From positions 1,067,390 through 1,131,389 of the forward strand of contig CAWFGE010000012.1 in assembly GCA_963815195.1 (NCBI GenBank): 64,000 nucleotides of DNA, written 5' to 3'. Below the pieces are notes generated by a model. It worked only from the letters and a program-made list of their open reading frames with translations. It did no database searches and was not told the DNA's origin. This DNA comes from an uncultured Planctomycetaceae bacterium. GTDB lineage: Bacteria; Planctomycetota; Planctomycetia; Planctomycetales; Planctomycetaceae. The translations under genes and the position numbers were made by a program. Shown here piece by piece: positions 31,376 to 51,701 of the stretch. Positions within the stretch are counted from its first letter, which is position 1; each line of letters starts with the position of its first letter.

Positions 31376-33062
31376 TTACCAAACCGTTTCGCCGACCGGC
31401 AGCACGTCGACTTCCGGGAGGCGGGCCGCGATGACGGTTGCGAGTTCGGGATGCGATTCAGAGAGTTCCGTCACCGCGGACAACGCTTCCCGCATCTCTG
31501 GGCGCGGATGGAACGGAGGGCGACCGACAACACCGGCAGCAAGCTTTCCGCGCGGCCGGGCTCTTTTTCCAGGGTCCGCGTCATTTGGCGGATCGCTTTG
31601 AGCTTCTGCCGGCCGCCGCGATCGACGCCCGCAAGCACGCTGCACCAGACGGGCGTCAAGGCGTCGGCATCGGGACGGGGAAAACTCCGCGAAGCCCGGC
31701 GTTCCAAAATGTCGATCAGTTGCTGCCGAACGTCGTCGAACGGCGTTTCCAAAAGCCGGCACCAAAACACCGGATCGCCGAACGCCGCCGCGTTGGAGGA
31801 TTCGTTTTCATCAAGCAGCCACGCCCAAGCCGCGGTGCGAATCGGCGCGGCGAGCGAATCGAAAAACGGCAGCACCTGATCGCGGTCATAAACGTCGGTT
31901 CGTCCCAAAATCGCAAGCGCCATGTAGCGACCTCCGCTGCGATCGCGCTCGATTGGGCTTCGCTCAATTCCACCAACGCCGCGCGGTCGCCGGCGGTCTG
32001 GATGCTGCGTTTTTTTAGAAACGTCAGACCCATCCGGGCCACGGGCGTCGGTTCCGAAGTGGTCAGCCGCACGCAATCGGCCAGCGTCAACCGCTCTCCC
32101 GAGACCTTCTCGGCCATTACCCGGCAGATGGTTTCGAGAGCCGTCAGGTTCTCTGTTTCCAGGAGCATCATCCAAGTCGACAGCGGCCAGGTTTCCAAAC
32201 CCTGGGCCTGTTCCAAAAGCTCCGCGGCGAACTGCTGCACGTCCTCTTGCCGATGCGTCAACAGATCCAAAAGCTCGTCGGCCGGGAGTTTTTGAAGCCT
32301 TGATGCGTGATGCTCGCGGAGCATTTCGATCGCCCACGTCCGCATGGCTTTGGAGCGGGCTTCGAGGACCATCAAAAGCAGTACATCCGCGGAGTCCGGC
32401 TGTTTCCAAAGCTCCGGAAAACTCGGCGCGGGTTTGAGTTCGCCCAGCGAATGACCGGGGCGGATTCTGATGAGCGAGGAACCGAACTCGAGCGCGGGGT
32501 GTTCTCGAAAGCAGGCCTGCATCAGGCTCCAGCTATCGAGCAGATTTTCGCCCTGGGCCAGATCGGCATCGCGGTACAGAATCAAAAAGCGGGCGACGGC
32601 CAGGGGGTAGTCTTTGGGCCGCCGATAGCCCATCCAGCGAAAGTACCGCCAGGCCCGCCGGCGGAGGTAATACCGCGTGTGATAGGAAAACAGACGCAGG
32701 TCTCGTGGCGAACTGAGCACGGTCTCTTCGTAACCCGTGCTGGTTTTCCAGTCGTACTTCCAGCGGCGGCGGCGTTCCCGGCGGGCGAGCCGATCGCAGC
32801 CCGTGGCAAACGCCGCCATCAGCTCGTCGTTCTGCTCTGCTTCCGCCCATTTGAAGAGCCGCTTGATGACGGGGTTATGCCCCCACGCATCCCAAGGCAG
32901 ATCGAGATAGCGAAACATCTGCTCGTGCGCCCAAGCCCGGCCGTCGGCGATCCACCGCCCGGTGAACTCGGCCAACAGGGGCATGTCGCGCACCTTCCGC
33001 AGCGCCTCGACAAACCCGGCATCCTGGGCCGAAAATAACGTCTCAAAATGCGCTTTCGCCAT
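31376..33062 (-). CDS. Helical (ARM/HEAT-like) repeat protein, frameshifts near 31920 and 31495
   Basis: Leu/Ala/Trp-rich helical repeats (LLDLLTHRQEDVQQFAAELL, FDSLAAPIRTAAWAWL, LLETPFDDVR); co-oriented with the SWIM gene. Confidence 0.65.
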
Positions 33063-34806: not shown

Positions 34807-36795
34807 GTGCTTCGAGTTGGCTGGATGCGCTGGACGCCGCTATTCACCCTGGGACTGCTCTGGGCGGTCCTGTTGGGGTGCGGGGGCCAGCGGTTCGTCA
34901 AACTTCGCGAGCAGCCCAAGAACCCGCTCGCCGAGCAACTCCGCCTCACCGCGCGGGGCGGCCCGGAACCCAGTCTCCGCACCGTGCAGCTTTTGAGGCG
35001 TTACGCCCTGCCCACGGGGCGGTTTACCGATCCCGAAAAACTCATCGCCCAGCTCGCGGTGCTGCACAACCAGGAACCGACGGCCGAGAGCTGCTATGCC
35101 CTCGCGGAACTCAGCTACATCGCCGCCGTGCGGATGCAGTTGACCCATCCGCACCGCGCCCAGGAGTGGTATCTCAACTGCGTGGCCCAGGCGTATGCGT
35201 ATTTGTTCGATGCCAAGTTCCGCCGGGAACGAAATCCCTATGATCCCCAATTCCGCGGGGCCTGCGACCTCTATAACGCCGCCCTCGAAGACTGCCTGCG
35301 CATCGCCAAGAAGGAAGGCACGTTCCGTCCCGGCAGCACGCTCAAGGTGGCGACCTGCGACAACACGCTGGAAGTCTCCATCACCGCGCGGGGCTTTCGC
35401 TGGAAGGCCGAGGACTTCGACAGCTTCGAGTTCGTCTCCGACTATGATCTGGAAGGCCTGAAAAACCGCTACCACAAATACGGCTTAGGCGTGCCTTTAA
35501 TCGCCGTGCGGAAAAACGGCAGCGCCCCGGCGGAGGTCGAACGCTTTTACGCGCGGGGGTTGTGTTTCCCGGTCACCGCGTTTTTGCGGCTGCATCCTCA
35601 AGAGACCGGAGGCTCCGCCGATTCGTCCGAAGACCCCCGGCACCTCAAAGCCCAGTTGGAACTCTATGATCCCTTGGAACTCACCGACGTCGAAGTCGCC
35701 GGCCGCACCGTGCCTTTGGAAAGCGACCTCAGCACGCCGCTCGCCTATTTTCTGAACGATCCCAACATCCAAAAGCTCGACACCTTCGGGCTCTTACATC
35801 CCGATCAGGCCAAGAAGATCGCCGGGCTGTATATGATCCAGCCCTATCAGCCGGGAAAAATTCCGGTGCTGATGGTGCATGGGCTTTGGTCGAGCCCCAT
35901 GACTTGGATGGAAGCCCTCAACGATTTGCGGAGCGACCCGCTCCTTCGCGAGAATTACCAGTTCTGGTTTTATCTCTATCCCACGGGCGAGCCGTTCTGG
36001 AAATCCGCGGCGGATTTGCGGGACGACTTGCGGATCGTCCACGACACGTTCGCCCCGCGCGATCCGGGGAATCGGCTGGACGACATGGTGCTCGTCGGCC
36101 ACAGCATGGGCGGGCTGATCTCGCGGCTGATCACTTACGACAGCGGCGACCGTTATTGGAACAGCGTCAGCCGCACGCCCTTCGACAAGGTCGAAGCCCC
36201 GCCCGAATTGAAAGAGCAGATCCAGCGCGTCTACTTCTTCCAGCCGGAGCCCGCGGTCTCGCGGGTGATCACGATCGCCACGCCGCACCGGGGCAGCGAC
36301 TATGCCAACAGTCTCACGCGCTGGATGGGCCGGCGTTTGATTTCCATTCCCAAGCTCACGATCAACACAACCAAACAGCTTTTGGAACTGAACCCGGGCG
36401 CGTTCCGCCTGGACGAATCGGACATGGTCACCACCAGCCTCGATTCGCTCTCGCCCAAGTCCCCGATTCTCAAAGCCATGCTGCAAACACCCCAATCGCC
36501 CGGCGTGAAATATCACAACATCGTGGGCATCACCAAACGGGACAAACCCTTGGAGGAAAACACCGACGGCGTCGTCGCCTACCCCAGCGCCCACCGGACG
36601 GATGTGGAATCGGAAATCGTCGTCGAAGCCGATCACAGCGAAGCCCACCGCCACCCCGCCGCCATCCGTGAAATCCGCCGGATCCTCTTAAAGCACCTGG
36701 AAGAGACCCAAAGGCAGCGGTTCCCGGTCGTCCCGCTCGACTACAAAACCTCCGCCACCGTCTCGGCCCCGGCGGTCGAAAAAACGGTCGAATAA
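34807..36795 (+). CDS. Lipoprotein alpha/beta hydrolase (lipase/esterase-like)
   Basis: Lipobox LLGC, VHGLWS, GHSMGG, IATPHRGS, DGVV. Confidence 0.88.
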   Translation: MLRVGWMRWTPLFTLGLLWAVLLGCGGQRFVKLREQPKNPLAEQLRLTARGGPEPSLRTVQLLRRYALPTGRFTDPEKLIAQLAVLHNQEPTAESCYALAELSYIAAVRMQLTHPHRAQEWYLNCVAQAYAYLFDAKFRRERNPYDPQFRGACDLYNAALEDCLRIAKKEGTFRPGSTLKVATCDNTLEVSITARGFRWKAEDFDSFEFVSDYDLEGLKNRYHKYGLGVPLIAVRKNGSAPAEVERFYARGLCFPVTAFLRLHPQETGGSADSSEDPRHLKAQLELYDPLELTDVEVAGRTVPLESDLSTPLAYFLNDPNIQKLDTFGLLHPDQAKKIAGLYMIQPYQPGKIPVLMVHGLWSSPMTWMEALNDLRSDPLLRENYQFWFYLYPTGEPFWKSAADLRDDLRIVHDTFAPRDPGNRLDDMVLVGHSMGGLISRLITYDSGDRYWNSVSRTPFDKVEAPPELKEQIQRVYFFQPEPAVSRVITIATPHRGSDYANSLTRWMGRRLISIPKLTINTTKQLLELNPGAFRLDESDMVTTSLDSLSPKSPILKAMLQTPQSPGVKYHNIVGITKRDKPLEENTDGVVAYPSAHRTDVESEIVVEADHSEAHRHPAAIREIRRILLKHLEETQRQRFPVVPLDYKTSATVSAPAVEKTVE

Positions 36796-36835: not shown

Positions 36836-37198
36836 TCACTCCGGCGCGAGAATCTGAGAATTGCGCTCGTTCTCCAACCACCGCCGGATCCGGCCGCGGG
36901 TCGAGATCGCCCCGCCGTTGCCGATGGGCAGTACACAGGCGAGCCATTTCGCCAGCCGCCAGGGCACCGGCTGATAAAGCCCGTCCCCAAACCGCACCGC
37001 GACGCCGCGCCGTTCCAAGGGAGGTTGCCCCTGCGCCGCCGAGAGCCAGTTCCGCAGCAATCCACTGAGCCGGTTTCGCTCCCACCAAGGCAATGCCAGC
37101 AATGCCAGCACCAGCCGCAGCTCGTCTTCGTTCGCCGGATGCGCGACCGCATCCGGATGCGGCGGCCGCTCGAATCGTAACCAGAGGATGTTTTGCAT
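36836..37198 (-). CDS. Hypothetical protein, possibly the last gene of the phage-like operon
   Basis: About 120-aa Trp/Arg-rich ORF co-oriented with the portal gene, from which the IS481 separates it. Confidence 0.55.
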   Translation of the reverse strand: MQNILWLRFERPPHPDAVAHPANEDELRLVLALLALPWWERNRLSGLLRNWLSAAQGQPPLERRGVAVRFGDGLYQPVPWRLAKWLACVLPIGNGGAISTRGRIRRWLENERNSQILAPE

Positions 37199-37277
37199 TT
37201 TGTGCTCCCACACTTTATTGAACGCGTCTCACTCCGAAGTGAGGGAGGAGAGAGATTAGAGGATGGAGGTTAGAAAA

Positions 37278-38828
37278 GGTACAGGTTCAGGACATGGGTA
37301 ACAGTTCTGGTTCAGGACATAGGTGACACTTTAAGGGAAAATCTGGTCGAAAGGAGACCAGATTATGCCCTGGAAAGAGGTCGATGTTTTGAATCTGCGG
37401 ACAGAGTTTGTGCTGCGTGTGTTTGAGTCGAAGGTCCCATTTGCCGAGCTGTGCCAGGAGTATGGGATCAGCCGCAAGACGGGTTACAAATGGAAAGAAC
37501 GTTTTTTGGAACAAGGCTTGGAGGGGTTGGGCGATCAATCGCGTCGACCCGCTCAAAGTCCGAATCAGGTCGGCGAGGAAACCCTTTGCCGGATGGTCAA
37601 GTTGAAGCTGGCGCATCCGGCTTGGGGACCACGGAAGATCCGCGCCGTGTTTGGTCGGAATCATCCCGAGGTCGATCTGCCATCGGAAAGCACGTTCAAG
37701 CGGGTGCTCGACAAAGCGGGCTTGGTCAAGCGCCGCCGGCGTCGCGCTTCGGTGGAGTCGGGCCGGATTCAAAACCGTCTCGAAGCCGAGCGGCCCAATC
37801 ACGTCTGGACGGTCGATTTCAAAGGCTGGTGGCGCACCGGGGATCGGATGCGCTTCGAGCCCTTGACGGTGCGCGACGCTTACAGCCGCTTCATTCTTTG
37901 CGCGCAGGCTTTGGAGAACAGCCGCACTCAGACCGTTCAGAGCGCGTTCGAGCGATTGTTCCTCCAGCAGGGCTTGCCGGAAGTCATTCGCAGCGACAAC
38001 GGCTCGCCGTTTGCTTGCACGCGGGCTCCATTGGGTCTGAGCCGTCTGTCGGCCTGGTGGCTGGCATTGGGCGTGGACCTGGATCGGATTCCGCCCGCGC
38101 GGCCGGATCAGAATCGCGCGCACGAGCGAATGCATCGGGACATTGCTTGGGAGTTGGAATGCGACGCCGAGGCCACGCTCCCCTCCCAACAGGCGGCCTT
38201 GGACGTATGGCGCGCCACCTACAACACCGAGCGTCCGCACGAGGCTCTGGGGATGCAGGTTCCCGCCGATTTGTACGTTCCCTCGCCGCGCCGCTTCGAG
38301 GCGGACGAGTTGGTGTTGGAGTACCCGGCGGAGTATTTGCGCCGCCATGTGGGCCCCAGCGGGGCGATCAAGGTTCACAACATCCGCATCCCCGTTTCGG
38401 AAGCCTTGGCCGGCTGGGACGTGGGCTTGAAGTACGAAGCGGCGAAGCGTTACGGCTTGTGGTTTTGCCGGCTGCGGTTGGGCGAAGTGGACCTGGAAAC
38501 CCAGAAGTTTACAGCCGTCAAGTCGTAAGACTGTTGGGGGCTTTGCCCCCAAACCCCCAGGATTTTTCGCCTGGGGTCCAAAGCAGGTTGGGGAAGACAA
38601 GAAGGGAAGCGAACCCTGTGGCGCGCTCCCCTCCTGCTTCGGACCCCACGCCGGCGCTCGGGTTGCTTCCCAGCAGAGCCCTATCCTCCTCGTGGGTAAG
38701 GCAGTCTTCGGCGCTTTAACCGGAAGGTCTTTAAGAGTTCTCATCATCGTGTTGAGTTCCAACCGAAACTGAAGTCCAGCGCCACCCATGTCCTGACCTA
38801 AAAGCGCCACCTATGTCCTGACTGTTCC
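37278..38828 (+). mobile_element. IS481-family insertion sequence
   Basis: Each end has two TCAGGACAT(A/G)GGT repeats, inverted between ends; termini GGTACAG / CTGTTCC; AAAA(G) on both flanks as a possible target duplication; ends uncertain by 1-2 nt. Confidence 0.88.
37365..38528 (+). CDS. IS481 DDE transposase
   Basis: MPWKE start, HTH GISRKTGYKW, WTVDFKG, IRSDNGSPF, HERMHR, YNTERPHEAL. Confidence 0.95.
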   Translation: MPWKEVDVLNLRTEFVLRVFESKVPFAELCQEYGISRKTGYKWKERFLEQGLEGLGDQSRRPAQSPNQVGEETLCRMVKLKLAHPAWGPRKIRAVFGRNHPEVDLPSESTFKRVLDKAGLVKRRRRRASVESGRIQNRLEAERPNHVWTVDFKGWWRTGDRMRFEPLTVRDAYSRFILCAQALENSRTQTVQSAFERLFLQQGLPEVIRSDNGSPFACTRAPLGLSRLSAWWLALGVDLDRIPPARPDQNRAHERMHRDIAWELECDAEATLPSQQAALDVWRATYNTERPHEALGMQVPADLYVPSPRRFEADELVLEYPAEYLRRHVGPSGAIKVHNIRIPVSEALAGWDVGLKYEAAKRYGLWFCRLRLGEVDLETQKFTAVKS

Positions 38829-38865
38829 AAAAGACCCACCAACCTCGAATCTCCATCCTCTACCC

Positions 38866-40250
38866 TCACACCGTTTGCTCGTTCCGTTGCGAATGTTCCG
38901 AAGAGATCTCCGCGCATCACCCGCGGGTCCGCCTTATCCCGGCGGGCGATCTCGGCTTTGCTCAAGATGCCCGCTTCCACCAGCCGCACATCGGCCAGGC
39001 GTTCTTTCGGGCGGTCGCGAACGGCGAGATCGGGAAACGTCCATGCGGGTTTGATCCGCTCGAACGCGTTCGCCGGGAGTTGGCCCGCCGCGATGAATTG
39101 CGACAGCACCCACCGCCAGAGCCGGTTCCATTCGCCTGCGAAAAACAGTTGCTCGCTGTGGAACAATTTGACCGCGGGGCCTTCGGCGACGAGCGTGGAG
39201 GCATAGTTGGCGTTGGAGGCATCGGACGTGAGCATGTATTCGGGCAATCCGCTTCCCGCCGCCGCGCAGAGCAACATCAATCGGCCCAAGGGAACGCCGT
39301 CGCGGAAGTTCGTCGTCGGGTTCAGGTATTGAAGGTCGGTGCCTTCCGAGGTGGTGAGGATCGTGCCGGCCCGATATTTCTCTCGCGGGATGACAGAGCC
39401 GGAATCATAAATCGGCCCGCGTTCGCCCACGTCGGCGACGATGCTCGAATCCGTGCCGCCCGTGACCTTCCGCCAGAGCACGATCGAGGCTTGCAGCTTG
39501 CGGGCGATGAGCGTCGTCTCCAGCCAGCGCCTCAAACTGCCCTAAGGTTTCCAGCACCGGGGCGAACCAGGTCAGGCCCCGCTTCTGGTTCGAGTCGGCG
39601 TTGATCCGCGTATGCAGCACTTCGCCGGCGGGAATCCGCTCCGCCAATTCGCCCGAAGCGGGATCGATCCGCAAATACGCGATGCGGGTTTCCACATCTT
39701 GAGCCGCGGTGAGAATGCCCTGCGTGCCGGGATGCTCGGTGGTCTCGCCGATGGTTTCCGGATCGAGAAACCGCACCGTCGGCCCCTCGTCCGACTCGGC
39801 GAACAGCCTCAAAAAACATTCGCCGTCCCGCCAGGTCCGCCGGGCGAACTCGCGGTAGGAAAAGTGCGCGCGGTTCGCCGAGAGAAACTCGGACCACAGA
39901 TGATCGGCCATCATCGTCAGCTTTTGATCGTGCTCATCCGCGCCGGGCCAATGCGGCACCGCGTGCACCGATAAGCCCGGCCCCGTGACGTAAATCTCCA
40001 ACAGCCGGAGCATGTTTGATGCATGCGGATTGCTCGCGACGAGCCGGCGCGCCTGCGTGCGGGCGTCGATGCGGTCCTGCTCATCGAACCGATTCCCCCC
40101 GCCGCCCAACAGCAGCCACTCGCCGGCGTCATCCGCCACCGGACAAGGCCCGCCGCTCTCGGCCAGTTCCAACAACCGCTCCTGCATCAAGCGCTCGTAG
40201 CGGGCCTTGAGCCGGGCCGTCTGATATTTCTCTCGCAGATAATTGAACAT
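38866..40250 (-). CDS. Phage portal protein (lambda-like), frameshifts near 39530 and probably 38910
   Basis: DGECFLRL, VRFLDPE, EVLHTRIN...KRG, GLPEYMLTSDASNANYAS motifs; follows TerL. 3' end reconstructed. Confidence 0.82.
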
Positions 40251-40279
40251 GGCGTTGTCCTTTGAAATTGAAATGAAAA

Positions 40280-40476
40280 GGCGAGCGGGGGGCGTCAGCC
40301 CCCTGGTTATTCTCAAAAATCAGAAATTCAGTACTTCCAAAAATGCCTGAGCCGCGCACGAAGTAAGCGGTCTTGCGCCGCCTGAGTCCCTGAAAACCGC
40401 TTACTTCGTGCGCGGCTCTTGGTGTTTTGTGCATAACCAGGGGGCTTACGCCCGGGCATCAGCCCCCCCGCTCGCC
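40280..40476. repeat. REPIN-like element (family A arms) with a nested perfect 23-bp inverted repeat
   Basis: Outer GGCGAGCGGGGGGCGTCAGCCCCCTGGTTAT and its inverted copy; inner GAGCCGCGCACGAAGTAAGCGGT at 40349-40371 and 40396-40418. Confidence 0.85.
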
Positions 40477-40479
40477 TGC

Positions 40480-41889
40480 TCACCAGGCAAACCCGCCGTC
40501 CGCGGCGGGCGGGGTGATCGCGAGCCACTCCGCGCTCACGGGCTGCTTGAGCGCATGCCAACACGCGGCCCCCAATGCAAATGCGCGGTCATCGTGAAAA
40601 TCCCCGTCCCGCCGGTGATCGATTCGGCAGCGGCCGGAAGGCGATTGCCGAAAGAGCAGCGATGCCAGTTCCGTTTCCAAATCATCCCGCAGCGGCGTAC
40701 CCGACCGCTTTCCGCAATCGGGATACCAGGCGACTTGCTTTTGCCGAATCAACCGATAGAGCGTCAAAGCCAATTCGTGATTGCCCTTGCCGCCGGCGAA
40801 CTCGAACCGCCGAGTTTTCACCTTCCGCTCCCAGGCTTGAATCACTCCCAAAAGCTGCCATTCATCGAGGATGAACTCGACCCGCTGAAATTTCCCCGAG
40901 ATGCGTTCGATCCAATCGCTGACCCAGGCCACCTGCGTCGGCGAATCGGGCCGCGGCACGACCACATCCATCCGATCCACGACGAGCCGATAGGAATCGT
41001 CGCCCACCGCTTCCTTGTGCAGCACCACGCCCACGGTCAGGTCGCGCTTCTCGGCATAATCGATCGCCGCGTAGTATTGCCGGCCCGGCTGGCCTTGGGT
41101 TTGCTCTTTCAAAGAGTCGTCCCGGCAAGCCTCGGCCTCGGCGAGCGTGACAAACTCCCCGTCCGAATGCTGCCAGCGGTTGAGCCACAACCGCTCGAAC
41201 ACCGGCGCGGGCAAGAGGGCCTGCTGCTCGGCCAAATGTTGTTCCGTGATCCACGGCGCCTGCGGGCCGTCCAAGGTGGAGAACGCCCACATCGGGTTTT
41301 CGGTTTGGGCATTCTTGCGGGCGGACTCGCGGACCTGCCACTGCCAACCCTGGCCGATGCCCGCGTTCGTCAGCACCGCCAAAACACAATGCGGACGTTT
41401 CGCCGCCGTGGACAACAGCGAATACCACAAATCCGGCTTGGGCCAATGGCAGAGCTCATCACAGATCACAAAGTCCACCAGCAAGCCCCACGAGCTTTGC
41501 ACGTCGGAGGAAATCACCGTCAATCGGCTGCCGGTCTCGCGGTTCTCGATGCGATGTTTGAGCAGCGTCAACGGCTGGAAGATCCAGGCATTGAGATGCA
41601 TCAGCCGCTCAAACGCATCGCGGATCAACGCGGCCTGGTCCTGATCCGCCGCCGCCACGATGCCGCTTAAAGGCCGGCCGGCAAACCGCAGAATCCAAGC
41701 AATCTGCATCGCCATGTCCGAGGTCTTCGCGTGCCCGCGCGGGCGTTCGATCCAGGCCCTGCAAACATTCGTCTCCACCGGCAAACCCGCCAGCTTCCGC
41801 CAGGCGGGATCGAGAAGGGCAAAGTCCCGCGACTGCCAGGGCTGGATGATTTCGCCGAACGGCCGATCGTCATCGCCCGTCAAACGCAT
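40480..41889 (-). CDS. terL: Phage terminase large subunit
   Basis: Walker A PRGHAKT, Walker B VICDE, coupling motif TNA, nuclease AIDYAEKRD and HDDRAFA; uninterrupted ORF; the start may lie slightly upstream. Confidence 0.9.
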   Translation of the reverse strand: MRLTGDDDRPFGEIIQPWQSRDFALLDPAWRKLAGLPVETNVCRAWIERPRGHAKTSDMAMQIAWILRFAGRPLSGIVAAADQDQAALIRDAFERLMHLNAWIFQPLTLLKHRIENRETGSRLTVISSDVQSSWGLLVDFVICDELCHWPKPDLWYSLLSTAAKRPHCVLAVLTNAGIGQGWQWQVRESARKNAQTENPMWAFSTLDGPQAPWITEQHLAEQQALLPAPVFERLWLNRWQHSDGEFVTLAEAEACRDDSLKEQTQGQPGRQYYAAIDYAEKRDLTVGVVLHKEAVGDDSYRLVVDRMDVVVPRPDSPTQVAWVSDWIERISGKFQRVEFILDEWQLLGVIQAWERKVKTRRFEFAGGKGNHELALTLYRLIRQKQVAWYPDCGKRSGTPLRDDLETELASLLFRQSPSGRCRIDHRRDGDFHDDRAFALGAACWHALKQPVSAEWLAITPPAADGGFAW

Positions 41890-42364
41890 ACCAGCCCGAA
41901 ATCTGCTCGGCGATGTACGACAGGCTCTCAACGTCCAGGTTTGCTTCAACTTCGTGCGGCAGGTCAACGCCCACCGCGCGGGCCAGTTCAACAAGCTCGG
42001 CATCGGTCAAATCTCCCAAAAGTTCATCGAAGGTCGCCGGTTCGGTCTCGGCAGGTTCCGCGAATGTGGGCGGCGGGAAGAGTTTGAGCCACGCCTGCTG
42101 CGCGGAGACGTTGCCTTCCATCGCCGTGCGGTAGAGGACCGCCATCACGTTGCCGCTCAAGACGCCCGTAATCTCCCGCACCCGCGTGCGGAAGCCGGCT
42201 TCTTCGTTCACGGTGTGAAGGAACGCCTCGACCGAAACGCCCACCTGCGCGCACGCGGCCGCCGGGGATGCCCCGCGATAAAGCAGGTCGAGCACCGCCG
42301 ATTGCTGGGTTTGGGAAAACGGCGAGAATTCCTCTGTGGGTTCGCACGCGGTTTCTTCATCCAC
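41870..42364 (-). CDS. Terminase small subunit-like HTH protein
   Basis: HTH (ASPAAACAQVGVS) and LYRTAMEGNVSAQQAWLK; overlaps the terL start. Alternative basic start MAKKKSS at 42529. Confidence 0.6.
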   Translation of the reverse strand: MDEETACEPTEEFSPFSQTQQSAVLDLLYRGASPAAACAQVGVSVEAFLHTVNEEAGFRTRVREITGVLSGNVMAVLYRTAMEGNVSAQQAWLKLFPPPTFAEPAETEPATFDELLGDLTDAELVELARAVGVDLPHEVEANLDVESLSYIAEQISGWYAFDGR

Positions 42365-42404
42365 GTGACCAGCCGGCTTACACCGGCCGCTCGCCTTTGG
42401 ATTT

Positions 42405-43680
42405 TCACTTTGCTCCTTTGTGGCCTTTGCCCCTTTGCTCCTTCCGATTATCGAAGATGTAGTACACCGGCTCCGCGTAGCGGCTTTTTTCGTCGGTCTC
42501 TTTCGTGAGGAGCTTTTCTTTTTGGCCATGTCTGGGTCCTGATCCATAAAGGGCGGAATGCCCGCGGCGGGAACGCCGGGCGGGCCGGGTCAAGCCGACG
42601 CGACGAAAGCCGGCTTTCTCGAAAACGGGGTTGATGTGGCCCATCTGCGTGAGAGTTTCGATCCAAGGCCAAGGGGCGGCCCGGCAGCTTTCGCGAACGA
42701 ACGCCGCCGCCAACCCCGCCCCGCGATACACCGGATGCAACACCAACCGCGACAATGTGACGAGCTGATCGTTCAAACTTTGAATCGAAACCCGAGACCA
42801 GCGGCCGGGCTTCCCGAAGAACTTGTTCCGCTGCCTGAGCGACACGGCGGGCGAAGTCATCACGCAGATCCCGATCGGCTCGTCGCCATGCCAGAGCAGC
42901 GTGACGAACTTCACGAACCCGAGGTGATGGCTGCGGTAATGCCAGCGAGCAAAATACGGCCAGTCGCGTGCCGATCCGGTCGTGATCTGGATGCCATTTT
43001 CGAAGCTGATCCGCCGTTTTTTTTTGCGCGGGCTCGGCGGGAGAATCTTCATCGGGCCGGACGCAATCGATCCCGCCGTCCAATCGGCAAACAACAGACA
43101 GCGACGGCGAAAGATCGCTCAAAATATCCTCGTGCGTCGTCGCGAGCAAAAACCCGATGCCGGTGCGGTCGGCCAGCCGGCGGAGATTGAAGGCGACCAC
43201 CTTCGCGAGCGTGCGGTCGAGCGTCGCGGAAAATTCATCGGCCACGATCCAATTCGGCTTTTGAGACAAAGCGAGCGCCAATCGAAACCGATACCGCTGC
43301 CCATCGCTGAGTTCGGCGGGCGTCCGCAACAACAGCCGGGCTTCGCCGAGACCGCACGCGGCCAGAATCCCCATCGCCTCCGAAACAGGAATCTCCAAAG
43401 CCTCGATCAAAATCCGCTCGCCGAGTTCCAATTCATTGAGATTCAATACCGCTTGACCTTCCGCCGCCAACCCATCCGCGGCCGCTCGCATCAAGCTCGA
43501 TTTCCCCGACCCCGACGCCCCGGTAAAGCACACCACATCCCCCGGACGAATCGGCAACTCGAAGTCTTCCGCAATCACATAAGCCCCCGTTTCAAACCCG
43601 ATCCCAAAATGATCCATCACCACCGCCGCCCGGCAAGACGGCTGCTTCGCGCGGAAGTCATAGGCAACATTGAGTTTCAT
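42405..43680 (-). CDS. ABC-type ATPase fused to a Mom-like GNAT acetyltransferase (frame break at an A9 run, 43017-43025)
   Basis: GASGSGKS, LSDGQRYR, VADEF, ATTH; after a +1 shift FARWHY and RLVLHPVYRGAGLA (acetyl-CoA motif). Confidence 0.8.
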
Positions 43681-43794
43681 CGTTCATCCTTTGTCAGTAA
43701 TAGTTTTCAGTTTTTTGCCGAGCCGAGCCCCGTGAGGGGCCGGTTATGCCAGTTTCATGTTTCATGTTCTTGGTCATAGGGGCTTGGTCATTCA

Positions 43795-44352
43795 TCATTC
43801 CGAAATGTGCACTCGCAAAGCATGGTCGCGAATCAAATCATCCAGATCGGGCCGGACATCGTCCCATTGCTCCCGGGGCACTTCGAGGGTGACTTTGACC
43901 AAATCGCCATCCGGTTCTTCGTCGGGGACGAAGGCGGGATCGGGAGCCAGCACCAGGTCGCGGAGTTCCTCGGCGTCGAAGCCGGTGAGCGTGGCGTCGA
44001 AATCGGGAAGGGCATCGAGCTCGGCGATCAAGCCCACGAGTTTTTCCGCGTCCCAATCGCCGCCGACCTGGGAGTTGTTCAAGGTGATGTTGAGCGCCTT
44101 TTCGCGTTCGAGGCTCAACGACACCACGACGACTTCGATTTCCGAAACGCCCTGGTCCTTGAGAATCCCGAGCCGTTGATGCCCGGACACGACGTGCCCC
44201 GTTTGCTCGTTCCACACGATGGGCTGCACGAGGTCGAACTCTTTGAGGCTCCGGGCCAGCCGCTCGTAAGCCGGCATCCCCGGCCGCAGGGAAATTCGCG
44301 GGTTATAGGGCGCGGGCTTGAGCTTCGTCAGCGGGATTTTTTGGATGTTCAT
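43795..44352 (-). CDS. ParB N-terminal (ParBc) domain protein, phage type
   Basis: LKPAPYNPR, SLKEFDLVQPIVWN, VSGHQRL, ALNITLN, GDWD, LTGFD. Confidence 0.88.
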   Translation of the reverse strand: MNIQKIPLTKLKPAPYNPRISLRPGMPAYERLARSLKEFDLVQPIVWNEQTGHVVSGHQRLGILKDQGVSEIEVVVVSLSLEREKALNITLNNSQVGGDWDAEKLVGLIAELDALPDFDATLTGFDAEELRDLVLAPDPAFVPDEEPDGDLVKVTLEVPREQWDDVRPDLDDLIRDHALRVHISE

Positions 44353-44388
44353 TTTCGTTTTGCCTCGGAACCGATTGATGTAAGAACG

Positions 44389-44492
44389 TTTTTGAAAATG
44401 TGAGCAGCACGGCGCTAGCTTCCGGTTTCGATGAAAGAAGTTCGTCAGATCACGACCGGCGGCTAGCGCCGTGCCGCTCACGTTTTCAGAAA
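44389..44492. repeat. Paired inverted REP (family B, GGCTAGCGCCGTGCCGCTCA)
   Basis: Near-perfect arms 44389-44426 and 44455-44492; related copies near 2388, 22790 and 22842. Confidence 0.8.
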
Positions 44493-44508
44493 ACCGAATC
44501 GCCAACAC

Positions 44509-44802
44509 CTATCCGCCATCCTCTATCCTCTCTTCCTCATCGGTTGGTGCATTGAAAAAATACTCGCGGACTTCCGCTTTGATGTTCTCGATGCACCGGC
44601 ACACGTGGCCCGGTTGGTGCCGAAACGCTTTCGCGATCTGCTCCAGCGACCAGCCCGCGTTCTCCCGCAGAGCCAGCATCGCCAGGTACTTCCACCGGCG
44701 GGCATCGGCGTCCGCGAACCCATCCGAAATCGTTTGCCAAAACTCATCCGCCCCCGTGCGGGGCAAGAGCACCTTCACGTTTCTTTGATCGACGACAGAC
44801 AT
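44509..44802 (-). CDS. Small HTH (sigma region 4-like) protein, first gene of the phage-like operon
   Basis: LRENAGWSLEQIAKAFRHQPGHVCRCI HTH pattern. Confidence 0.7.
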   Translation of the reverse strand: MSVVDQRNVKVLLPRTGADEFWQTISDGFADADARRWKYLAMLALRENAGWSLEQIAKAFRHQPGHVCRCIENIKAEVREYFFNAPTDEEERIEDGG

Positions 44803-45023
44803 CAGCAGTTGTTCCCCGTTGGAATTCTTGGGTTTCTACCCTATAGGAGCCACTTTGCGCCACAAGATAAATATACAAAAGAACACTTGTGCTAACTCTC
44901 CAGCATGACGGGAGTTGCGAGCTTTGCAAAGTGGGAAAAGTCGTGTTGGCGCAAAAAAATGCAAGATTCCCGCCGGATGTCGTTTGCGACCAAAATCGCC
45001 TAGAATGACGGAGAGAGCCAAAC

Positions 45024-45171
45024 AGGCGAGCGGGGGGCGTCAGCCCCCTGGTTACGTCGAATGCCGTTCCACGATGGAAAGCTCAATCGAATCTCATGGA
45101 ATCAAATTCTGCAAAAATGCCGGTTTGTTTGAATTGCGAGTAACCAGGGGGCTGACGCCCCCCGCTCGCCT
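45024..45171. repeat. REPIN-like element: perfect 32-bp inverted repeats with an 84-nt spacer
   Basis: AGGCGAGCGGGGGGCGTCAGCCCCCTGGTTAC at 45024-45055 and its exact reverse complement at 45140-45171. Confidence 0.9.
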
Positions 45172-45193
45172 TGTTGTTGTGGGACTTTAGGTC

Positions 45194-46222
45194 ATGGAGC
45201 GTTATCAGAAACAGGTGTTGTTCGCGGGCTTGAAGGAAGAGGGGCAGCGGAAGTTGGTGGAGAGCCGGGTGCTGTTGTGCGGCTGCGGGGCCTTGGGGAC
45301 GGTGCTCGCGGAGACGTTGGTGCGGGCGGGCGTGGGGTTTGTGCGGATTGTCGACCGCGATTTCGTGGAACTCTCCAACCTCCAGCGGCAGGTGCTGTTC
45401 GATGAAGAGGATGTCCGCGAGCGCTGGCCCAAAGCCGTCGCCGCCGCGCGGAAGCTCGCCGCGATCAACAGCGAAGTCACAATCGACGCCGTCGTCGCGG
45501 ACATCGATCACACGAACATCCTCACGCTCGCGAAGGATGTGGATCTGATTCTCGACGGCACGGACAACTTCGAGATTCGCTTCCTCATCAACGATGCCTC
45601 GCTCGAGACGGGCCTGCCGTGGATTTATGCCGGCGTCATCGGCAGCCACGGGCAGACGATGACGATTTTCCCCCACAAGACGGCGTGCCTGCGCTGCTTG
45701 ATCGAAAGCATCCCCGCGCCGGGCACGACGGAGACCTGCGACACGGCGGGCGTGTTGGGGCCGGCGGTCAATGTGGTCGCGTCTTTGGAAGCGACGAGCG
45801 CCCTCAAAATCCTCTCCGGCCAACCGGAACTGGTGGAGCCGAGCTTGATGATCCTCGACGTGTGGGATCTTTCCTTCCGCAAGATGAACGTCGCGAATCT
45901 CCGCGACCGGGCCGACTGCCCGGCGTGCCGGCATGGGGAGCGGGTGTGGCTTTCCGGCCAGAAAGGCGGCGAATCGACGGTGCTCTGCGGCCGAAACGCC
46001 GTCCAAGTCCGCCCGCCGGAGAAGACGCAGCTTTCTCTGGAAGACCTGGCCGAGAAACTCAAAACGTCGGGCGAAGTCCAGTCCAACAAGTTCCTCTTAA
46101 AACTCACGCTGAAAAACCCCGACTACGAGTTGACGGTTTTTCGCGACGGGCGGGCGATCATCAAAGGCACCGAAGACATCGGCATCGCCCGCGGCTTGTA
46201 CTCGCGGTACATCGGAACCTGA
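45194..46222 (+). CDS. ThiF/MoeB-family adenylyltransferase
   Basis: RYQKQ, GCGALG, DRDFVELSNLQRQ, DGTDNF, CLRC and CPAC zinc motifs. Confidence 0.93.
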   Translation: MERYQKQVLFAGLKEEGQRKLVESRVLLCGCGALGTVLAETLVRAGVGFVRIVDRDFVELSNLQRQVLFDEEDVRERWPKAVAAARKLAAINSEVTIDAVVADIDHTNILTLAKDVDLILDGTDNFEIRFLINDASLETGLPWIYAGVIGSHGQTMTIFPHKTACLRCLIESIPAPGTTETCDTAGVLGPAVNVVASLEATSALKILSGQPELVEPSLMILDVWDLSFRKMNVANLRDRADCPACRHGERVWLSGQKGGESTVLCGRNAVQVRPPEKTQLSLEDLAEKLKTSGEVQSNKFLLKLTLKNPDYELTVFRDGRAIIKGTEDIGIARGLYSRYIGT

Positions 46223-46697
46223 CCCGGCGAGCGTGGGGCGTAAGCCCCATGATCTCGAGAATTGACCAGCGGGCGGGGCTGGAGGGGAATTTTTGCGATG
46301 CGGGAAGATTTCGCGATTCTTTTTCCCGGCCCGCTGGTTTGATTAGATGCAGGACTGCATTGGATGGGGCGGAAATAAGCAGTCGGCCCTTGGAAAAATC
46401 GGGTTGGTGAGTTTCAACCGGTCAAAGCGAACTCTCACCAACCCGGGCACCCAACCCCAGCGGTCGCGTTGCGCCGGGAAGGGTTGTTTCATTGTAACCT
46501 GGCCGTTTCGGTCCACAACCTTTGATTCCTCCTCTTTTTTTGGGGTTGGTGATTTTCAGTCGGGTCACAAGTTTGCGAGCATTCGCGAATGGGCCGGCGG
46601 TTTTGCCGGAGGAACACCCGAACCCGGCGAAACCCGTCCCCTTACTCAACTCAGGCACGCGGTTTGATGCGACTATTTTTTGTCAAGGAGCAAACGA

Positions 46698-47712
<1,015 letters not shown>

Positions 47713-48812: not shown

Positions 48813-51516
48813 TTAGGCCGCTTTGGCTTGGACCACGGCGGAGGCGGGGGCGATGGACTTCTTGAGTTCCTCCACTTCCTTTTGGCCCGCTTCCACGGCT
48901 TTGCCGGCGGCGGCGGCTTGTTGCGTTGCCGCGGTGGCTTTTTCCTGGAGCGGTTTGACGGCCGCGGTCAGATCGGCCGCACGCTTCTGGGCGGCGGCGT
49001 AATCGGCGGCGGACTTCGCGGCCGCTTGTTCCGCGGCGGCGACAGCAGCTTGGGCGGTTTCCACGGTTTTGGCTTTTTCGGCGGCGGCCGTCTTGGCCGC
49101 TTCGAGGCCTTGGGCTTTCGCCGCGATCAGGTTCTTCCAAGCGGTCACGGCGGCCGTCACGTCTTTGTCGCCGGGCGATTTCGCGGCGGCTTCCTCGGCG
49201 GATTTGAGGGTCGTTTGAAGAGCCGGCACGAGAGCCGTCAGCGTGGTCACCGTTTTGCCGGCTTCGGTTTGAGCGGCGGCCGCGTCGGCAAATTGCTTCT
49301 TGGCCGCGGTGACGTTGGCGTTGGCGGTTTCGACTTGTTTTTGAACCGCCAGCGCGGTCTGGTTGGCCGAGGCGAGTTCTCCCTCGGCTTTCTTGAGTTC
49401 CGCCGCCGCCTGGTTCGCCGCGGCCGCGAGTTCGTCGGCTTTAGACTTGAGGGCGGTGAGCGCTTTCTGCTTGGCGCTGATGTTTATTTCGGTTTCGAGA
49501 CGGGCCACGTCTTTTTGAGCCGCCGCGAGTTGGGCCGCCATCGCGTCGGCGGCCTGTTTCGCCTGGGCCGCTTTGTCTTGCGCGGGTTTGAGCGTGGGCG
49601 TCAATGCGGCGACCTGTTTCTTGGCGGCTTCCAGTCCGGCCAGAGCGTCGGCGAGTGATTTTTCCATCGCCGCTTGCTCCTTTTGCTTTTGCTGCATGGC
49701 CGCGGTCTTTTCGGTCTGGAGCTTCTTCGCCGCGGCGAGGGCGGCCGCTTTTTCATCAACCTGGGCTTTGAGCTTACCGACGGCTTCCGCGAGGGCTTTG
49801 TCGTCTTTGGCTTTCTCCACCGCTTGCTGGGCTTTGGTGAGCGCTTCTGCGAGCGGCGGGACCACGCCGGCCAACGTATTCGCGGTGTTGGTGGCGGCTT
49901 GGACTTCCTTGGTCAACGCGTCCACCGCGGCTTTGGATTTGGCGATTTCGCCGGGAAGCGCTTTGGACTGGGCCTCCAGGTCGGTCGCCTGTTTTTGGGC
50001 GGCCGCCAGGTCGGTTTGGATTTTTGTCGTCGCCGCAGTCATTGCAGTCTGAGGCATCGGCGAGTTTTTTGTGTTCCGCCTGTTTCGCGGCGAGAGCGGC
50101 TTTCGCTTTAGCGAGTTGATCTTCAAGCTTCAGCGGGTTCGCGGTGAGTTCGCCCACCGCTTTGCCGTCCGCGGCGGCGAAGACTTTGATCGCTCCCGTC
50201 CAATCGCCGGCGATGACCTGGTCGGTCTCGTCGCAGATCGTCACTTGGAGAGCAATATCGCCAAAGGCCGGAAACGCGCGGAGTTGTTTGCCGTTCTGGT
50301 CCCAGAGCTTGGCGGTCTTGTCCCGGCCGCAGGTGACGATCCGGCCGTCGCGGGCGAACTCGACCGAGGCCGCGCCGCCGCCGTGGGCATTCCAGGACTT
50401 GACGTTGCTGCCGTTGACGACTTCCCAGAGCTTGACGCTGCCGTCTTCGCTGGCCGAGGCGACGAGGTTGGAATCGCTCCGCCAGGCAATGTCGCAGATG
50501 GACCCTTTGTGGCCGTTCAAGCTCAGATATTCGCGGCCGGTTGCGGCTTCCCAGACCAACAGGCCGCCGTTGCGGTCGCCGGTGGCAAGCAGCACGCCGT
50601 CGGGGCTAAAGGCGATCGAATAGATCCAGTCGGTGTGCTTTTTGAGTTCGTATTTCAGTTCGCCGGTCTTGGTGGAATACACGCGCACGACTTTGCCCGG
50701 CCCGCCCAAAGCGACCAGCGTTTGATCGGAGCTGATGTCGGCGGCGAGGACGGTGTCGAGCTCGTCGCCGACTTCGATCACGCGTTCGCCCGTGCGGACG
50801 TTCCAGACCACGACTTTGCCCTGGGCCGCATCGTGTCCGCCGCCCGCGAGCAAGAGGCTGCCGTTGTGGCTGAACTTGAGCGACTGCGGCACGCCTTCCG
50901 GGAAGGGCAAAATGCCCGCGAGATCGAGCGTCTTGGTGTTATACAGAATCACCTGCTTCTGCCCGCCCACGGCCACGAGCGGCGACCAGGGGTTGCTGGC
51001 GAGCGCGGTGACCGCCGTGGTGTGTTCGGTGTGCACGACGGGTTCGAGGCTCAACAGTTCCGGCATCGGCGGCGGACCTTCGGGCCGGCCCGTGGGACTC
51101 GCGGCGAGCGACAGATCGAGCTTGGGCTTGTTCGCGATGGGCTTGCTGCCGGAGTTTTCGAGCGCTCCGCCGTCGATCCATTGGCGGATCAACGCCAACT
51201 TGTCCGCGGGGAGCTTGTCTTGTTTGGGCGGCATGTACGGTTCGGATTCATGGTTGACGAGCATGAACAGGTAGCTGTTCCCGGCGTCGCCCGGTTCGAT
51301 CACCGCGCCCGATCCGCCGCCCTGCATCATCGAGGTGTAGTTGAGCAGGTCGAGGTCCGCCACTTTTTTGTTCGTGTTGTGGCAGGTCGCGCAGTATTGG
51401 CGGAAGATCGGCTGCACGTGGTCCTGGTAGGTGATCTTCGCCGGCGCGTCCGCCGCCCGGACGGAAAGCGGAGCCAAAACAATCGTAACGAAGGCAACAA
51501 GTCGGGTCGTGTTCAT
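48813..51516 (-). CDS. Planctomycete cytochrome c + WD40 + Ala/Lys coiled-coil protein (frameshift near 50050)
   Basis: CATCH haem motif, MPP...IRQWIDGGA, WD40 repeats (HTDWIYSIAFSPDG, ASEDGSVKLW), long heptad tail. Confidence 0.88.
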
Positions 51517-51556
51517 AAGAAGTGCTCCAAATCGGGATGCCGATTGAGAGTGAGTG

Positions 51557-51701
51557 AGGCGAGCGGGGGGTGTCAGCCCGGGTGTCAGCCCCCCGGTGAC
51601 GTGGATTGTTTGAGATACAGTCAACTTGAAATCGTCTTCTGGAAATCGAGAGTCTCTTCTTCTTTGCGAATAACCAGTGGGCTTACGCCCGCCGCTCGCC
51701 T
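51557..51701. repeat. REPIN-like element (family A)
   Basis: AGGCGAGCGGGGGGTGTCAGCCC... and TAACCAGTGGGCTTACGCCCGCCGCTCGCCT in inverted orientation. Confidence 0.8.

Follow-up and report, generated by a model that had tools for sequence, protein, structure and literature searches.

A phage-derived packaging operon in a Planctomycetaceae bacterium as a candidate locus of a split, domesticated gene transfer agent-like system

The window analyzed here is a stretch of 64,000 nucleotides from an uncultured Planctomycetaceae bacterium (GCA_963815195.1, contig CAWFGE010000012.1, positions 1,067,390 to 1,131,389), and between positions 36,836 and 44,900 it carries an operon of phage packaging genes that includes the terminase large subunit (TerL) and a portal protein. 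We lean towards reading this operon as the packaging locus of a domesticated viriform resembling gene transfer agents (GTAs), which in this genome would be tail-less. The two components of this reading differ in strength: domestication of a phage-derived gene kit is very probable from the comparisons below, and a GTA-like function is modestly favored.

Matches to Pfam and PHROG profiles confirmed the co-oriented genes that an earlier inspection of the window (the sequence-only reading) had placed between a hydrolase gene and thiF, namely, a helix-turn-helix (HTH) protein, a ParB-N protein, an ABC ATPase, a GNAT acyltransferase, a terminase small subunit-like protein (TerS-like), TerL, a portal, and a small open reading frame (ORF) (Table 1). 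Two details were corrected. The ABC ATPase and the GNAT, taken for one ORF, are two reading frames that meet at an A-run, and the account of a seven-gene operon had overlooked an IS481-family transposase. The TerS-like ORF overlaps both the GNAT end and the TerL start, and the small ORF has no match in Pfam, PHROG, or Atlas. The TerL motifs were indeed retained: Walker A (RPRGHxK), Walker B (DFVxCDE), the TNAG coupling motif, and the acidic nuclease residues D286, D351, and D442/D443 are invariant in all 11 aligned orthologues. The host-like GC content also held (0.608 for the cluster versus 0.600 for the window). A search of an annotated phage collection gave a single weak TerL match (31% identity over 29% of the query), and PDB sequence searches with alignments of the capsid, TerL, tail tube, and hub gave none below E 0.03.

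The absence of capsid and protease genes noted in the window holds for this locus and not for the genome. Genes for a protease, a decoration protein, a major capsid protein of the PF25209/phrog_133 type, and an adaptor-like protein are located at C12:651.4-654.6 kb on the same contig, approximately 450 kb from the window. They were reached through a TerL search of viral contigs, which led to one locus (L031) where the packaging genes are continued by genes for protease, decoration, capsid, and tail that could be used as queries. A capsid-independent DNA machine, which had been proposed as the other possibility, thus does not fit a genome with capsid genes of its own, yet one other lineage, of two genomes described below (G095 and G146), keeps a selected, intact TerL with no capsid match.

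The same genome search did not recover tail genes. Profiles built from relatives for 10 downstream genes (two chaperone-like genes, o97, head closure, neck, terminator, tube, tape measure, distal-tail-like, and hub) matched none in this genome, and neither did PF10145, PF05065, or the hub alignment. With genome completeness at 94.6%, tail absence is unproven from this genome alone, but both genus relatives likewise gave no tube, hub, or distal-tail-like match.

In many other genomes the two loci form one cluster in the same order, which spans 18.4 to 19.7 kb beside thiF in the four loci measured. The genes of the operon are followed by protease/scaffold, decoration, and capsid genes; then by two chaperone-like genes, an adaptor-like gene, a small coiled-coil/hydrophobic gene, head closure, neck, and terminator; and finally by tube, a tape measure of ~225 to 285 aa, a distal-tail-like gene, hub, MptE-like, GT2, and GT4 genes. 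The hub has a baseplate-hub fold (E 1e-16), and head closure, neck, and terminator are labeled from matches. The best fold-search matches of the tube are tail tubes at only E 0.011, so that this label, drawn from weak fold matches and position, is tentative, and the chaperone, adaptor, and distal-tail labels are deduced from gene position. No integrase or replication genes were seen in the full clusters. Neither the ancestral short tail nor its loss in the genus could be seen from the window alone.

The distribution of the system was surveyed in 151 genomes of the family, where matches were obtained for TerL (85 genomes), capsid (87), portal (87), tube (47), and hub (59). Removal by eye of weak, distant, or fragmented rows (8, 11, and 11) left strong orthologues of TerL in 77 genomes, portal in 76, and capsid in 76, with all three in 69 and any of four genes in 83. 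These orthologues are nearly all single copy, and capsid identity across the family is mostly 66 to 81%. In a sample of the phylum, the capsid was found in 15 of 20 other genomes of the family and in 5 of 380 outside it, the latter at 29 to 38% identity. Cultured strains with the capsid gene are Planctomicrobium sp. SH661, SH668, and SH527, Thalassoglobus neptunius KOR42, and Maioricimonas sp. JC845. An rpoB tree of 89 of these family genomes has carriers in many of its parts, and the state changes at least 11 times.

Single-gene trees of TerL and rpoB, built by quick methods for 45 genomes, have 17 of 42 splits in common (2,000 shuffles gave a mean of 0.25 and a maximum of 3), with a Mantel r of 0.68; 15 of the 25 well-supported rpoB splits are recovered by TerL. 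The comparison of TerL with the host tree, suggested by the sequence-only reading, came out largely in favor of codivergence with the host, with two conflicts taken up below. The host TerLs group in a single clade (support 98) that excludes second copies and mobile relatives. In 11 pairs plus 7 more, the cluster genes and rpoB show similar synonymous divergence (dS; two values are saturated). In all of these pairs that allowed its computation, tail-less lineages included, the ratio of nonsynonymous to synonymous divergence (dN/dS) is 0.05 to 0.24 for TerL, 0.02 to 0.29 for portal, and 0.03 to 0.25 for capsid, far from the value near 1 that had been named as a warning sign. It is 0.01 to 0.07 for the tail tube. 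For the retained genes it also stays low in tail-less pairs whose dS approaches or exceeds 1. The proposal that the window holds one locus of a split, long-resident GTA-like system is well supported by the head locus elsewhere, the single-copy orthologues across the family, the tree congruence, the purifying selection, and an upstream motif common to both loci.

Taken as a GTA-like viriform, the system would go back to virion genes of phage origin that underwent a single domestication, in or near the Planctomycetaceae ancestor, and have since been passed on vertically. A host signal, perhaps amplified by the HTH protein, would switch on all sub-operons through a common promoter. A small head would be built around the portal from protease/scaffold, capsid, and decoration proteins, into which TerS and TerL would pump chromosomal DNA that they cut, as in a GTA. 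The ParB-N protein and an ABC-GNAT fusion, made at a low level by frameshifting, may acylate the packaged DNA or serve as its chaperones. To these parts the ancestral form would add a short noncontractile tail, a baseplate hub, and three glycosylation-type enzymes. In the genus of the window the product would be a tail-less, DNA-filled head that may be delivered by borrowed phage tails or taken up after release, or may have a role inside the cell.

Several observations weigh against this interpretation. Particles, packaged DNA, transfer, and expression have not been observed, and we know of no route by which a tail-less head could deliver DNA by itself. No lysis gene was identified. None of the four genes is found in 68 of the 151 genomes, closed genomes included (G058, G063, G073, and G123 are without the system), and sets are broken or partial in G004, G034, G042, G121, G095, and G146. 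The patchy distribution that the sequence-only reading had regarded as evidence against itself is therefore found in part, but seen on the rpoB tree it looks like the outcome of losses that happened repeatedly. Two TerL/rpoB conflicts are strongly supported, and the two trees disagree in 25 of 42 splits. In genus g9, protease and decoration seem to be under relaxed selection (dN/dS of 0.44 to 0.71), with a protease value of 0.59 in one other pair. Finally, both the portal and the capsid gene are broken in the assembly, an insertion sequence (IS) is present, and a contig contradicts only two of the four indels in the cluster.

The state of the tail was compared among the 69 core carriers. The tube is present in 39, a hub without a tube in 12, and neither in 18. 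In the tube-less, hub-bearing loci seen, chaperones, neck, tube, and tape measure are missing together. Six genera, that of the window among them, have neither tube nor hub in all sampled members (g1, g9, g12, g25, g30, and g33, with 2 to 3 genomes each); the closed genome G008, in the same state, is also without the distal-tail-like and adaptor-like genes, and several head-only genomes are without the adaptor-like gene. By these comparisons the genus of the window seems to have lost the tail and kept head and motor under selection. The three glycosylation-type genes (MptE-like, GT2, and GT4) that close the full cluster, at L135:4009-7118 and in its orthologues, are lost together with the hub; a glycosylated tail tip is possible.

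The head-only carriers also bear on a different purpose, namely, that head and motor were domesticated for intracellular defense or interference and on infection would divert or mis-package phage DNA, through undersized heads or DNA cutting, with the tail dispensable. The 18 core carriers without tube and hub matches keep selected head genes, as this would predict, and G095 and G146 hold an intact TerL (dN/dS 0.07) beside truncated portals and no capsid match, which speaks against a single purpose. The GNAT-ABC pair, moreover, is predicted to modify DNA in the available text of PMC7824862. We nevertheless consider defense rather doubtful, given that the ancestral and commonest form (39 of 69) has its tail and hub complete and under selection, as one would expect of delivery to other cells, and that no defense-system context was seen.

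The breaks in the assembly raise the question of whether the family system is a functional viriform of which this strain's copy was recently inactivated, with the frameshifts, the IS, and the earlier tail loss as steps of decay. The portal, intact in both genus relatives, is broken here by a 1-base offset (an extra base) at ~39531 and by a 2-base gap near 38910; the capsid gene, which is missing a base, and the A-run likewise depart from relatives by 1 to 2 bases. Of 40 regions compared, only 4 are split, in a count that missed the small pieces of rpoC, and two of these are portal and capsid, as inactivation would have it; tail loss and full loss also recur across the tree. The assembly, however, has indel errors, because rpoC carries two frameshifts (C19:20334-20417) and other genes show apparent frameshifts too. 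Contigs of X1, a sequencing run that is possibly from the window's own sample and thus not independent support, contradict the assembly at 38910 and 43016, and none spans 39531; of the portal frameshifts that the sequence-only reading had wished to see checked in reads, one is so contradicted and the other is unbridged by these contigs. In runs X2 to X4, coverage is mainly of IS and repeats. Together with the intact genes of both genus relatives and the low dN/dS of tail-less pairs whose dS is about 1 or higher, this makes assembly error likelier than decay as the cause of the breaks, and recent inactivation is unlikely. The IS481 element is a recent intergenic insertion that made a 5-bp target duplication. 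The sister genome G070 lacks it, an X1 contig bridges it, and the genome has 3 full and 2 partial copies. Apparent frameshifts were also observed in the window at 31716-33062, 46680-47712, and 48813-51723 and at C12:649800-651200, in genes that we take to be HEAT-like, DUF1559-type, WD40, and fabF-like.

A bipartite motif, GCGCAA(C)-N11-13-(TA)GGTTGA, precedes most first genes by 50 to 110 bases. The GCGCAA box lies upstream of HTH in 19 of 28 loci, portal in 21 of 32, and protease in 37 of 56, where shuffling gave expectations of 1.2, 1.9, and 3.0, respectively; internal genes have only 2 to 5 occurrences (capsid 2/59, decoration 3/58) and distant protease loci none (0/10). These counts include kin genomes, which are not independent. 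In this genome the two loci have near-identical copies of the motif, and a matrix trained without them ranks each as the best site of its region. From its position, strand, and TAnnnT-like box, we infer that the motif is a promoter. A genome-wide scan with the family promoter matrix gave 257 sites versus 355 in the reversed-genome control (score of ≥13), and because it did not beat this control, no wider regulon, lysis gene, or sigma factor is drawn from it.

In the genus of the window, the motif also heads a noncoding unit of ~335 bases that ends in a terminator hairpin. Matches number 7 in this genome (G000), 13 in G070, and 4 in G130, with none in 147 other genomes. Its body is structured, with the palindrome CGGATATCCGG and a strong terminator; compensatory change at 12 of 64 predicted pairs is modest evidence, coming from related copies. 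Twelve loci of the unit gave no Rfam match at E up to 1. The unit is mobile, one site being filled in G070 and empty in this genome, and of the further copies checked, 6 of 6 have the GGCGCAA box and 4 of 6 the terminator. This co-promoted structured unit, as well as the glycosylation-type genes that end the full cluster, would suit a particle with protein or RNA cargo, through MuF-type delivery or as a nanocompartment, in place of random DNA. Such a particle is quite improbable, for the host cluster has no MuF or toxin gene, the TerL nuclease and ATPase residues are invariant, and the RNA-like unit is mobile and confined to 3 of 150 genomes.

Six viral contigs with the capsid gene were found, of which four are the host cluster itself (72 to 79% identity) and two have a capsid identity of 48 to 53%. 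The latter two carry portal, head-morphogenesis gene, small ORF, protease, decoration, and capsid in this order; the head-morphogenesis (MuF-like) gene is missing from the host form. They likely represent the source phage lineage. The closest nonorthologous TerLs (38 to 43%) belong to elements with an integrase and a primase or helicase and with no portal or capsid match. A distant head-module relative (26 to 37%; L122-L133), with a fused ABC-GNAT and another TerL type, was also observed among planctomycetes, Pirellulales included, and may be a prophage or a second domestication. Repeated acquisition of ordinary prophages now in decay, to which the patchy presence, the partial sets, and the listing of several host-cluster loci as viral in IMG/VR might point, is the least probable explanation, in line with the sequence-only reading, and appears already largely refuted by tree congruence and selection tests. 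The genes are single copy, with a fixed thiF anchor and dS equal to that of rpoB; the TerL clade (support 98) leaves out mobile relatives; and the cluster showed neither integrase nor replication genes.

Sequence analysis recovers three of the six features of a GTA in the definition excerpted from PMC9662315: caudoviricete-derived proteins (TerL, portal, capsid, neck, and hub matches and folds), endogenization, often at several loci (here two loci 450 kb apart and the thiF anchor), and mostly vertical inheritance with codiversification with the host (17/42 splits, r of 0.68, 2 strong conflicts, and dS near that of rpoB). With regard to a further feature, that a GTA cannot wholly package its own genome, which depends on head capacity too, the split loci here would probably not fit one head. 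The other two features of the definition are the packaging of mostly random host DNA and the delivery of DNA to other cells; as to delivery, no tail genes were found in this genome. The established GTAs named in that excerpt come from few lineages, none in Planctomycetota. The tape measure resembles in length that of the Rhodobacter capsulatus GTA (RcGTA), about 216 aa when computed from the segments given in PMC7296036.

The likeness to RcGTA extends to chromosomally fixed head, motor, and short-tail genes, split loci, vertical inheritance, and no replication genes seen, and the ComEC family is present in this genome. The system differs in its PF25209/phrog_133-type capsid, its lambda-family portal, the ParB-N, frameshifted ABC-GNAT, and glycosylation genes, the repeated loss of tube, hub, or whole tail, and the phylum. 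The gene set of the RcGTA family (Rhodogtaviriformidae-type) has a PF05065-type capsid, and with no PF05065 match in the genome, the system is, on gene content, not of the RcGTA family.

The cf-PICIs, phage-inducible chromosomal islands that form capsids, are compact mobile islands with integrase and replication genes. As far as the available text of bioRxiv 10.1101/2025.02.11.637232 goes, they are mobile satellites that package their own DNA, and their tail-less heads take phage tails; like this genome, they have their own capsid, portal, protease, and terminase and no tail. The present system is immobile, split over 450 kb, and codiverging with its host, and the only integrase-fold gene is the IS481 transposase. 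By these features it is not a cf-PICI, though its head-only state resembles cf-PICI particles. The integrase, replication, and lysis modules and the sporadic, variable sites of prophages do not describe it either. A GNAT coupled to an ABC ATPase is likewise reported for the phage module in the text seen of PMC7824862; here it stands beside ParB-N and terminase and is host-fixed and joined mostly via a slippery A-run, not as a plain fusion. The retention of genes for terminase, portal, and capsid by bacterial chromosomes recalls the MuF/phage-packaging toxin delivery outlined in PMC3482391 (partial text), from which the host cluster differs by having no MuF or toxin domain. No paper describing the cluster, or a GTA in Planctomycetota, was found in the literature searched, where a mention in subscription papers or supplements is possible; the part of PMC7947584 consulted mentions only an RcGTA-like TerL in the prophage of another planctomycete.

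A more elaborate form of the GTA-like reading can be entertained, tentatively. An independently domesticated Planctomycetaceae particle would have shed its tail repeatedly, leaving DNA-filled heads under a dedicated promoter that are delivered by borrowed phage tails or direct uptake, and it would be parasitized by integrase-terminase satellites and by a promoter-capturing, mobile structured RNA element.

The junction between ABC and GNAT was compared in 46 rows, two of which duplicate others; 40 had both genes. The GNAT frame is −1 in 29 of these (26 with a run of 6 to 9 A at the junction), an in-frame fusion in 7, and +1 in 4. The window is one of the four +1 rows, and the X1 contig with one extra A gives −1. 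A +1 frameshift at the A-run of this genome was considered and dropped, the X1 contig and the sister genome showing the usual −1 register. Either ribosomal shifting or polymerase slippage would do for the joining. For a GNAT coupled to an ABC ATPase, the part of PMC7824862 available predicts acylation of a DNA base. The dS of the GNAT (42405-43016) is below that of its neighbors in most pairs, a hint of an overlapping frame or an RNA signal. Noncoding features of the operon include inverted REP-like repeat pairs of 30 to 40 bases at 40280-40480 (TerL/portal gap) and 45025-45172 (before thiF), with ~90 matches genome-wide, and a long imperfect hairpin with 38-base arms at 44389-44492, in the HTH/ParB gap.

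Table 1. Coordinates of the operon, its flanks, and related elements (window positions unless a locus or contig is named)
Feature	Position	Strand	Remarks
Promoter-like bipartite motif	44836..44866	-	GCGCAA box, ~12-base spacer, TAnnnT-like box; common to head operon 450 kb off
Small HTH protein, candidate regulator	44509..44802	-	Conserved first gene; orthologues with weak sigma70 region-4-like matches
ParB-N domain protein, type found beside phage terminases	43795..44352	-	PF02195; phrog_620 E 2e-37
ABC-type ATPase, phage ABC-GNAT family	43026..43680	-	phrog_293, phrog_11143
Slippery A-run, ABC/GNAT junction	43017..43025	-	A9 in assembly; A10 in one X1 contig
GNAT acyltransferase, frame differs from ABC ATPase	42405..43016	-	phrog_886; Acetyltransf matches in orthologue
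TerS-like	41870..42547	-	phrog_4044 E 7e-4; start uncertain, possibly 42364
TerL, intact	40480..42003	-	PF03354, phrog_9; start uncertain (42003 or 41931)
Portal protein, lambda family	38880..40250	-	PF05136, phrog_21; split in assembly
IS481-family element	37279..38828	+	Transposase 37365-38528 (rve integrase core); between portal and small ORF
Small conserved ORF, function unassigned	36836..37198	-	Follows portal in many relatives and two related viral contigs
thiF/moeB, divergent chromosomal anchor	45194..46222	+	Flank in 14/36 orthologous loci examined
Alpha/beta hydrolase, host flank	34807..36795	+	Not kept beside cluster in relatives
Satellite-like elements	L067:2000-11000, L068:1200-11000, L069:4900-16500		L069 with protease
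Noncoding unit loci L244-L249	G000 C7:222810, C12:953857, C13:305292, C17:318945, C20:132558, C21:134771		Partial at C8, C13, C23, C4

With a viriform that is found across the family and has cultured carriers, planctomycetes would gain a genetic tool and a candidate route for exchanging genes. The common promoter motif is a direct handle for finding the inducing factor. Whether hosts keep domesticated capsids for gene transfer or for another purpose can be tested on the natural series that runs from full-tail through tube-less to head-only forms, all of them under selection.

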